Below, in pieces: positions 24,001 through 27,000 of a DNA stretch of 64,000 bases. Location of the stretch: NCBI RefSeq assembly GCF_013167455.1, contig NZ_CP038328.1. One strand, written 5' to 3'. The stretch's first letter is position 1; each line of letters begins with the position of its first letter. The position numbers were made by a program. This stretch comes from Escherichia coli O157:H7 (GTDB taxonomy: Bacteria; Pseudomonadota; Gammaproteobacteria; Enterobacterales; Enterobacteriaceae).

Positions 24001-27000
24001 CATCCACCAGCAGGACGTGTGACCATCTAATGATCGACCTTGAAACCATGGGAAAAAATCCTGATGCCCCGATCATCTCAATAGGTGCAATATTTTTCGA
24101 TCCGCAAACCGGAGATATGGGACCGGAATTTAGTAAGACTATCGATCTGGAAACTGCTGGCGGGGTCATTGATCGGGACACCATTAAATGGTGGCTTAAG
24201 CAATCACGCGAAGCGCAATCTGCCATTATGACCGATGAAATCCCGTTAGATGATGCACTATTACAATTGCGGGAATTTATCGACGAAAACTCCGGTGAAT
24301 TTTTTGTTCAGGTCTGGGGAAATGGAGCCAACTTCGACAACACGATTTTGCGCCGTTCATACGAACGGCAGGGGATCCCCTGCCCGTGGCGTTACTACAA
24401 CGATCGCGATGTACGCACAATCGTTGAGCTGGGGAAAGCCATAGACTTCGATGCCAGAACGGCTATTCCATTCGAAGGTGAGCGCCATAATGCACTTGAT
24501 GACGCCCGTTACCAGGCAAAATACGTTTCAGTTATCTGGCAAAAACTGATCCCGAATCAGGCTGATTTTTAATGTTCAACCCCGGTCGTTGCCCACCAGC
24601 TATAGTGGCGGCGACCATGATTAGCGAACGACGCTCATGGCAAGACTTATTCTGCTCACTGAGTGGGCAAAAGAGGAATTCAGTGAACCGGTCCCAACTC
24701 CGAGTACGTTAAGTAAATACGCTAAAGCCGGAATGATATTTCCTCTCCCCAAAAAAGTTGGAAGACGCTGGCGAGTGGATCCGCAAGCTCGCTTTGTCGG
24801 AATGGTAAACAAGCCGGAGGTGATCGCCACAGATCACCCTGCTTTGAAGAGGATACTGGAAGATGGCGCGCCCGCGAAAATATAAAACCGATGTTCCGGG
24901 ATTATCTCCGTATTTTGACAAAAGAAATAACAAAGTTTACTGGCGTTACAGGCATCCCATAACAGGCAAAAATCACGGTCTCGGCAGTATTGACCAGAAA
25001 CTGGCAGAAACTATTGCAGCAGAAGCGAACAGCCGTCTTGCCCGGCAGCAAATGGAACAAATGCTCAGTCTGCAGGAGAAAATTATTAGTGATACCGGCG
25101 GTTCATCAACCGTTACCATTTTTCTGAATAATTACAGAAAAATTCAACAGGAAAGATATGAAAACGGCGAGATCAAACTCAACACGCTGAAACAGAAAGC
25201 GGCCCCTCTCAGGGTATTTGATGAACGTTTTGGCACCAGACCGTTAGATGCCATAACCGTAAAAGATGTGGTATCAGTACTGGAAGAGTACAAGGCCAGA
25301 GGACATAACAGAATGGGACAAATTTTCAGGAAAGTACTGATCGATGTTTTCCGGGAAGCTCAGCAAACGGGCGATGTCCCGCCAGGCTTTAACCCTGCAG
25401 AATCGGCAAAAAAACCGCAGGTGCGGATATCAAGACAGCGACTGACTTTTGATGAGTGGATGATGATTTATAACGCAGCGGAAAAGGATGGTTACTTTTT
25501 ACAGCGCGGTATGCTGCTGGCACTGATGACAGGCCAGCGCCTTTCAGATATTTGCAAAATGCAATTTTCGGATATCCGGGATGGTTATCTTCATGTCGAA
25601 CAGCAAAAAACAGGAACCCGGATTGCCATCCCTCTGGCTCTGCGTTGCGATAAATTAAATCTCACCCTGGATGATGTGGTGTCATCCTGCCGCGATTGCG
25701 TTCTTAGTCCGTGGCTATTGCACCACCATCACGCGAAAGGGACAGCTAAGCGCGGCGGGATGGTTAAGCCAGCAACATTAACCGTTGCATTTAAAAAAGC
25801 CCGGGATTCTGTGGATTACAACTGGCGTGCTAATGGCACCCCTCCCTCTTTCCATGAGCAGAGATCTTTATCAGAGCGATTGTTCAGAGAGCAGGGGGTT
25901 GATACCAAAATTTTGCTAGGCCATTCGAATCAAAAAATGACCGATATTTACAACGACGCACGCGGTAAGGAATGGAAAAAACTGGTCATTTGATGACCAG
26001 TTTTGCAGAGGGGTTTTGCAGAGGTTTTGCAGAGAAAATTAAAAACGATATCCTACGGAGAACATAAACACCCACGGATCCAGTCGTACCGAGTCTTTTA
26101 CGGTAGTAACACCAGATTTGTACTTAGCCGTGGTATCGATATCCATGTACCACACTGACATGTTAACCAACCAGTCACGGTTAATCAGATAATCAACCCC
26201 CACCTGCCCGGCAGCTCCCCAGGAATCTTTCAGACTGAGATCGGAAAGCCCCGCCTCTTTGCCATGATCGTTAAATCCATTATCAAAGAAGGTGGTGTAG
26301 TTAATACCTGCCCCAACATAAGGACGGAATTTGCTGCTGGCATCACCAAAATACCACTGCGCCATCAGTGTTGGCGGCAGATGATGAACGGTTGCAATAT
26401 CGCCGGTCGCCCGGGTGCCGATTTTATGGCGGAACGGCGTCGCTGCCAGTAATTCCACACCAATGTTGTCGGTCGCCATATAAGTAAACGTCAGGCCCAG
26501 TTGAGTGTTATTGGTCACGCTGAATCCACCCAGACTTCCTAACGTACCACCAGCACCTTCTGTTGGACGTACGGTTGCAGAACCTGCACGCATAAAAAAT
26601 TCGCCTGCTTCATGCGCAAAGGCACTGCCAGAGAGAAGAGTTGTTACTGCCAAAGCCGCCACTGTTAACTTTTTCATATCCGCTCCGTCGTTATGGTTAT
26701 AAAAACGTGACGAATATACCTACATTGGAGTAACAAATGATCCTACATAGATCACATTACATATGATAATTCACCATTTATTGATCTGGATTAATTTAGA
26801 AGTTGCATTGAGAATCCTGGTTAACGTGATTTAAATCAATTTTTAAATATTTTCGCTACGCAAATATTAACTCGTTCGCCACTTGCCGCGGTTTGCCCAC
26901 GCCTGAAGGCCAGCAATTACCTCCGCTTTACAAAGATATGCTTTTCCATACAAGACCTGATGCTGCCACCCGAGGCTTAACCAGGGTACAATTGCCCGCT

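Follow-up and report, generated by a model that had tools for sequence, protein, structure and literature searches.

Three direct repeats lie between a prophage integrase gene, int, and ompW in the window, i.e. the whole 64-kb stretch of Escherichia coli O157:H7 DNA analysed here. Comparison with related elements makes it highly probable that they are the int-proximal, P'-type arm sites of attP in the PPompW prophage family. We infer binding of these units by the N-terminal domain of Int and, likewise, any assignment of particular units to integration or to excision.

The gap between the two genes spans 45 bp (25994-26038), from the int TGA at 25991-25993 to the end of the minus-strand ompW ORF at 26039, the same length as had been given in an earlier, sequence-only reading of the region. 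Thirty-five of these 45 bp (26000-26034) consist of three units placed head to tail as GTTTTGCAGAG-GG-GTTTTGCAGAG-GTTTTGCAGAG, so that the further claim of that reading, three direct repeats filling most of the junction, holds; Tandem Repeats Finder returned them as a single array (26000-26034, period 11, 2.9 copies, score 54). On the plus strand, the units GTTTTGCAGAG occupy 26000-26010, 26013-26023 and 26024-26034, and we propose them as arm-type Int sites that would be P'3-like (nearest int), P'2-like and P'1-like (nearest the core), respectively. The exact sequence TTTTGCAGAG is found at 26001-26010, 26014-26023 and 26025-26034 (start-to-start distances of 13 and then 11) and nowhere else in the window, the junction trio comprising all copies. 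When one mismatch was allowed, 8 matches to TTTTGCAGAG were observed in the window for 5.5 expected, which indicates that this sequence is not generally enriched there. Three identical 10-mers inside 34 bp far exceed what chance would give. Since a tandem repeat alone could come from slippage, the case for a function rests on comparative data.

The junction is 100% identical to that of E. coli O157:H7 NZ_CP066753.1, in which it forms the right end of a lambda-like prophage with paa and nleG genes, and where the annotation lists an excisionase, a 'phage integrase Arm DNA-binding domain-containing protein' and ompW. Identity to the PPompW deposits LC567818-LC567841 is 99.9% across int and the junction; their depositors name the integrase gene intE. 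In the window, int (24863-25993, plus strand) encodes a lambda-family tyrosine integrase of 376 aa, as assigned from Pfam domains and structure matches. Its N-terminus matches Arm-DNA-bind_1 (PF09003, residues 2-71, E = 7e-22, 77.7 bits for a cut-off of 22) and its catalytic domain Phage_integrase (PF00589, E = 1.3e-16), PF22022 being matched as well. Residues 14-375 match the lambda Int structures 5j0n and 1z1b (E = 1e-55), with the QR, HExR, GH and Y motifs aligned. The cognate integrase therefore carries an arm-DNA-binding domain beside core-binding and catalytic domains, a three-domain build common to lambda and PPompW. Sequence identity is 36% with lambda Int and about 51% with the Int proteins of icd-type lambda-like phages, in which a fragment of icd lies beside int as in attachment sites of the phage 21 and e14 type. 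The xis gene (24637-24885, plus strand) encodes an 82-aa excisionase (Pfam Exc, PF07825, E = 1.3e-7), and is labelled excisionase in the identical O157:H7 record too.

The position of the repeats relative to host DNA was determined by aligning the two prophage ends with the empty site. The other end of the prophage is not present in the 64-kb window, position 1 of which corresponds to position 3015726 of the record of a 100%-identical O157:H7 strain, inside a terminase large-subunit gene; in O157:H7, prophages and IS elements form a rearranged cluster at this locus. As the other end falls outside, attL was supplied by a different O157:H7 strain and by a single O145:H28 PPompW prophage. In the core alignment, attR was the window, attL was represented by L004 and L011, and attB by the K-12-like genome L001. 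The only stretch identical in all three is GTGGTATCGATATCCATGTACCACACTG, a 28-bp block at 26130-26157. Phage-type and host-type polymorphisms change over on either side of this block, and strand exchange must hence fall within it.

Between the repeats and the core block lies a substitute, phage-borne 3' end of ompW (26037-26129, minus strand), diverged from the chromosomal copy in the attB and attL alignments and made of the final 30 ompW codons, the stop codon and 2 bases past the stop. The ompW gene of the window (26039-26677, minus strand) is, from its ORF and annotation, chimeric, with a host 5' part and a phage 3' end. Compared with the K-12-like yciE-ompW region, identity is about 93% from 26037 to about 26090; divergence is strong from there to 26129, and the sequence is essentially identical from 26130 onward. 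Eight residues distinguish the chimeric OmpW from that of K-12; all are among the last 28, and they cluster at residues 185-208. The opposite prophage end, beside yciE, carries the native last 126 bp of ompW. The substitute end and the core together (26037-26157) are the 121-bp segment annotated in LC567822 as 'duplication due to insertion of PPompW'. In prophage-free genomes, for which only the ompW part of the query was matched, the match started at 26037 in 25 of the 25 sampled. The triple sits just outside the 121-bp duplication, on its int side, and is absent from attB and attL; conversely, the core block contains no copy of the repeat motif, i.e. the arm motif differs from the core. By these alignments, the repeats are of phage origin, and E. 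coli without the prophage lacks them.

A fourth copy of the motif is present on the other arm of attP. In a single 44-kb PPompW prophage, GTTTTGCAG occurs exactly four times, namely in the triple and as a single copy, oriented like the triple, on the opposite arm; 0.61 copies were expected in 44 kb and four were reached in none of 100 shuffles. A search of viral contigs for two adjacent units returned many PPompW junctions, several of them intact attP, and the same motif was found on both arms, three copies plus one, in these intact junctions also. In the intact attP junction of a viral contig, with positions counted from the core centre, the triple repeat is at -144 to -110, the core at -14 to +14, the IHF consensus AATCAATCAGTTA at +102 to +114 and the single distal site GTTTTGCAG at +133 to +143. 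The match to the IHF consensus, about 20 bp core-side of the distal site, is perfect (0.08 expected in 520 bp). In the prophage state, the triple stays with int and the single distal site is at the other end, next to yciE; in LC567822, this site occupies 43752-43763. Two viral contigs with tandem GTTTTGCAGA (L021 and L032) were treated as chance matches, the motif lying inside coding sequence.

Both distal features are conserved. In five distal arms that are about 80% identical, GTTTTGCAG is invariant and homology collapses immediately beyond it; all five variants conserve the defined positions of the IHF consensus, with variation at its four N positions. Across about 1200 genomes, the distal arm is 60-90% identical, and in the rows sampled the match stops at the single site (query 161-182). 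The invariance of GTTTTGCAG, together with the end of homology directly beyond it, is as expected for the outer edge of a functional attP. The last bases of the distal copy differ from those of the repeat unit (GCAGGAG vs GCAGAGG). No IHF-like site with up to one mismatch, and hence no H'-like site, was detected in the int-proximal arm with its substitute ompW segment. A search of the distal arm for an inverted, P2-like site gave nothing convincing; the only candidate, next to the core, was discarded, as it had 3 mismatches and was not conserved.

Among PPompW junctions, the triple is kept in cases where the flanks differ by 5-8%. The 9-mer TTTTGCAGA is invariant in every unit of the diverged junctions, and variation affects the two end bases of the unit (G or A at either end) and the spacers (GG, GA). 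The two commonest junction forms were captured by a regular-expression census, and the other variants were read from alignments. One O55:H7 genome has only two units, plus an extra A that frameshifts the end of int.

Related elements also carry three repeats after int. Two phages with a substitute icd 3' end and an Int about 50% identical to that of PPompW (L025 and L028) have the same triple after the int stop, as GTTTTGCAGAAGA GTTTTGCAGAG GTTTTGCAGAAG, in flanks that are otherwise unrelated. Beyond the core of L025, no copy of the motif of its own triple was found with up to 2 mismatches; the nearest distal look-alike, by eye, is GTTTTGATAAT, which resembles the e14 motif. This exception and the different end of the PPompW distal copy mean that the match between the motifs of the two arms is not strict. 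In the icd phage 4A7, the Int of which is about 51% identical to PPompW Int, three copies of GTTTTGGGGAAG follow int and one ATTTTGGGGAA lies past the core (motif TTTTGGGGAA, 3+1). In e14 of K-12, two exact copies of GTTATCAAAA surround a one-mismatch copy, TTTATCAAAA, beside the icd substitute, and one further exact GTTATCAAAA is at the other end (again 3+1); 18 kb contain no exact copy besides these three. In a Providencia phage and in a Klebsiella phage, int is likewise followed by three units of a motif of its own.

All these motifs, read in the int direction, have a GTTTTG half-site in common and differ in their second half, which is GCAGAG in PPompW vs GGGGAA in 4A7 or ATAAC in e14. The N-domain signatures RPRK[YF]/PGL and RPR[SD]HK/PNL go with the two motif types (3 vs 3 sequences). 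The motif therefore travels with the Int lineage and not with the target gene, the distal site of L025 being the one exception. The icd elements (the phage 21-type 4A7, and e14) share with PPompW an overall design in which int is followed by three tandem repeats, by a replacement 3' end for the target gene (opposite strand) and by the core, with a single repeat about 120-130 bp past the core. They differ from PPompW in their target, icd instead of ompW, and e14 differs further in having extra genes between int and the sites. Wang et al. (1997) reportedly mention repeated dodecamers that were proposed as arm recognition sites of phage 21. Text searches of the literature for phage 21 or e14 arm sites and for the motif strings returned nothing relevant.

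The arrangement is close to that of lambda attP, which served as a positive control. In lambda, P'3-P'1 directly follow the int stop on the int-proximal arm, and the PPompW triple occupies the same place; as with P'1-P'3, the PPompW units are direct repeats about one helical turn apart. The lambda P1 site (annotated as binding site 'int 1') is 129-148 bp from the core centre in the orientation of P'1-P'3, and the PPompW distal site is similarly located about 133-143 bp from the core, in the orientation of the triple and beside an IHF site, like lambda P1 and H1. The two systems differ in the motif itself, the PPompW unit GTTTTGCAGAG being unrelated to the lambda motif (C/A)AGTCACTAT, and in its regularity, as the PPompW units are perfect copies whereas those of lambda are degenerate. 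In PPompW, the triple is also more distant from the core centre than in lambda, by about 55 bp (110-144 bp vs 54-84 bp), because the PPompW arm also encodes the last 30 ompW codons. Unlike lambda, PPompW has no detected H'-like IHF site and no detected P2-like site. During lambda integration, the Int N-terminal domains bind the P' arm and P1, and IHF bends the DNA between (PMC4880445).

By analogy with lambda, each PPompW Int subunit would be heterobivalent. Its C-terminal domains would hold the core inside ompW (26130-26157), and its N-terminal domain one of the repeats or the matching single site on the far arm. Bending of the DNA, by IHF on the distal arm at least, would bring arms and core together into an intasome, which would carry out integration and, with Xis, excision. 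PPompW prophages are reported to be mostly defective (PMC8112680), and the sites may thus no longer serve in this strain.

Other explanations of the triple were considered against these data. That the repeats belong to the att core, or to the duplicated segment that rebuilds the ompW 3' end, was suggested in the sequence-only reading, and distance would favour it, the repeats being 2 bp from the annotated 121-bp PPompW duplication and 4 bp from the ompW stop codon. The attB/attL/attR alignment rules this out: homology to ompW, and with it the duplication, begins at 26037, two bases past the last repeat, the stretch common to the three att sites is limited to 26130-26157, and the repeats are present at the int end alone. 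The comparisons that had been proposed gave concordant results, and the outcome named beforehand as refuting did not occur: the K-12-like genome has no such repeats downstream of ompW, and attL, at the other prophage end, has no triple. We attach practically no probability to membership of the att core or duplicated segment. Neutral tandem duplication by replication slippage in a non-coding gap would have left functionless repeats. It would account for units that are perfect and contiguous, like fresh slippage products, and for a copy number that varies, down to the two units of the O55:H7 genome. It would not account for the retention of the triple in diverged flanks with changes in spacers and unit ends and not in TTTTGCAGA, for the same triple after a 50%-identical Int in icd-type phages, for an invariant fourth copy at the edge of the other arm, or for the relatives' own triples in the same place, and we consider it very improbable. 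The repeats might also bind another recombination accessory protein, for example Xis, instead of Int: an excisionase gene is present, and three close direct repeats resemble the three tandem Xis sites of lambda, X1, X1.5 and X2 (PMC4880445). The lambda Xis sites, however, are on the arm away from int, whereas the triple is on the int-proximal arm in the position of P'1-P'3, and the motif recurs singly where the other arm ends, with an IHF site next to it, as for lambda P1 and H1 and unlike the Xis sites. This location of the triple and of the isolated motif makes binding by Xis unlikely. The comparative evidence instead gives good support to the other suggestion of the sequence-only reading, that the repeats are predicted arm-type binding sites of Int.

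The block could also act mainly as RNA, as 3' UTR and terminator for the transcript of int or of the chimeric ompW. RNA folding predicts a hairpin at 25978-26004, with a 12-bp stem (AAAACTGGTCAT / ATGACCAGTTTT) and a 3-nt loop; the int stop codon falls inside this hairpin, which also extends 5 bases into repeat 1. Its fold z-score is -3.5 for the plus and -4.7 for the minus strand, TTTTTT comes next on the ompW strand, and a compensatory C>T / G>A pair occurs in one lineage (ETEC1718); possibly, the hairpin is a two-way terminator for int and the chimeric ompW. On the ompW strand, the stop codon precedes the repeats and this stable hairpin, with its six T, comes after them; the native ompW terminator is not carried by the prophage. 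Nevertheless, the structure comes from the hairpin and not from the repeats, of which it takes in only those 5 bases, and a consensus promoter and terminator scan around the junction made no call, the hairpin included. A role as RNA also leaves unexplained the copy on the other arm and the triple of the icd phages, in which a separate terminator-like hairpin is located elsewhere. We therefore regard a principal role as RNA as highly unlikely; an RNA-level function could be a secondary role of the block, next to that of Int arm sites. A related idea is that the prophage deliberately alters OmpW, through the diverged last 30 codons, a new 3' UTR formed by the repeats, and a new hairpin that replaces the native terminator. 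We find this doubtful. If it were true, surface properties or expression could be affected, so that, for example, superinfecting phages or colicins that use OmpW might be blocked, and the arm sites would double as part of the ompW 3' UTR.

Nakamura et al. (2021) defined the 121-bp PPompW att sequence and detected excised circles by PCR; in their account, the PPompW family includes members that carry type III effector genes and members that host Stx phages integrated into them (PMC8112680). That paper defined the duplicated segment alone, just outside which the repeats lie, and the term 'arm-type' is absent from it. Here, the crossover is narrowed from the 121-bp att to 28 bp. Arm sites are ordinary in lambda-like phages, and those of PPompW appear to have been previously unremarked. 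The resulting attP map covers about 290 bp, with a 28-bp crossover block and three predicted arm sites on the int side, and with an IHF site and one more predicted arm site on the distal side. It may help to predict which degraded prophages still excise, for example that of the O55:H7 genome, in which a unit is lost and the int end is frameshifted, and may aid the design of attP/attB tools. It also describes the arm motifs of the 21/e14/PPompW group as one shared and one variable half-site. The finding of arm sites changes no concept, and its use is in the annotation of a very common E. coli prophage family: with a match to at least 80% of a 701-bp query (int 3' end, junction and 3' part of ompW) as the criterion, the junction was present in 1714 of 5426 complete E. 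coli genomes, about a third.

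The three repeat units found between the int and ompW stop codons of PPompW (window 26000-26034), proposed as Int arm-type sites, have a counterpart in the e14 element of K-12 (L034). In e14, three GTTATCAAAA-type units, the outer two exact and the middle one reading TTTATCAAAA, are located at 1443-1476, just past the substitute icd end and a terminator, and a single further exact GTTATCAAAA copy is present near the opposite e14 end (16286-16295). This arrangement is the same as in PPompW, with three units on the int-proximal arm and one site of the same motif on the distal attP arm; it differs in that ymfD, ymfE and lit now lie between int and the repeat sites of e14. 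Two phages on IMG/VR contigs, L025 and L028, both carry a substitute icd 3' end, and in both of them int (Int about 50% identical) is followed by the PPompW-type triple GTTTTGCAGA. Roughly 120 bp past its core, L025 has an e14-like site (GTTTTGATAAT). The presence of a PPompW-type triple together with an e14-like distal site suggests, from the sequences compared, either that the arms of L025 are mosaic or that the second half of the motif is tolerant to change.

Altered junctions were observed in two E. coli genomes. In O55:H7 USDA5905 (L005, 541-790), only two repeat units are present, and the A-run near the end of int is one base longer, which makes the annotated int ORF run into ompW; this junction is probably a decaying recombination module. 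In strain 83972 (L009), a truncated sfaF, a fimbrial usher gene, is joined to int, the repeats and the substitute ompW end. Because homology to the window stops at about 26162, slightly beyond the att core (26130-26157), the sequence of this junction points to a rearrangement in the core or close to it.

The prophage supplies the ompW 3' end (26039-26129). Compared with K-12 OmpW, the chimeric protein has eight residue differences (N185K, L188S, G190V, A191T, Q192T, Q193V, H194K and A208V), all of them within the final 28 residues, the remaining sequence being identical. The native ompW terminator hairpin is not present on the prophage; therefore, a hairpin with a 12-bp stem that contains the int stop codon (25978-26004), and that is followed by TTTTTT when read on the ompW strand, may replace it. 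This hairpin was not called in a terminator scan around the junction. ETEC1718 carries a compensatory C>T/G>A pair in the hairpin, and L022 a loop-base change that converts the int stop from TGA to TAA.

On the distal arm of the PPompW attP, a stretch, GCTTTTTTATAC, agrees with the 15-base lambda att core at 12 positions (about 43811-43822 in L011, the prophage sequence with attL; about +74 to +85 from the core centre). It is mostly kept among diverged distal arms, with the variants GATTTTTTATAC and GCTTTTTTGTAC, and might serve in bending or as an accessory site, or else be a chance occurrence in T-rich DNA.

Elsewhere in the window, a region that has no bearing on the int-ompW repeats (50870-51615) contains two near-identical 91-nt copies resembling tRNA genes (50870-50960 and 51164-51254), followed by 178-bp tandem repeats; it looks like the E. 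coli tyrT-tyrV region.
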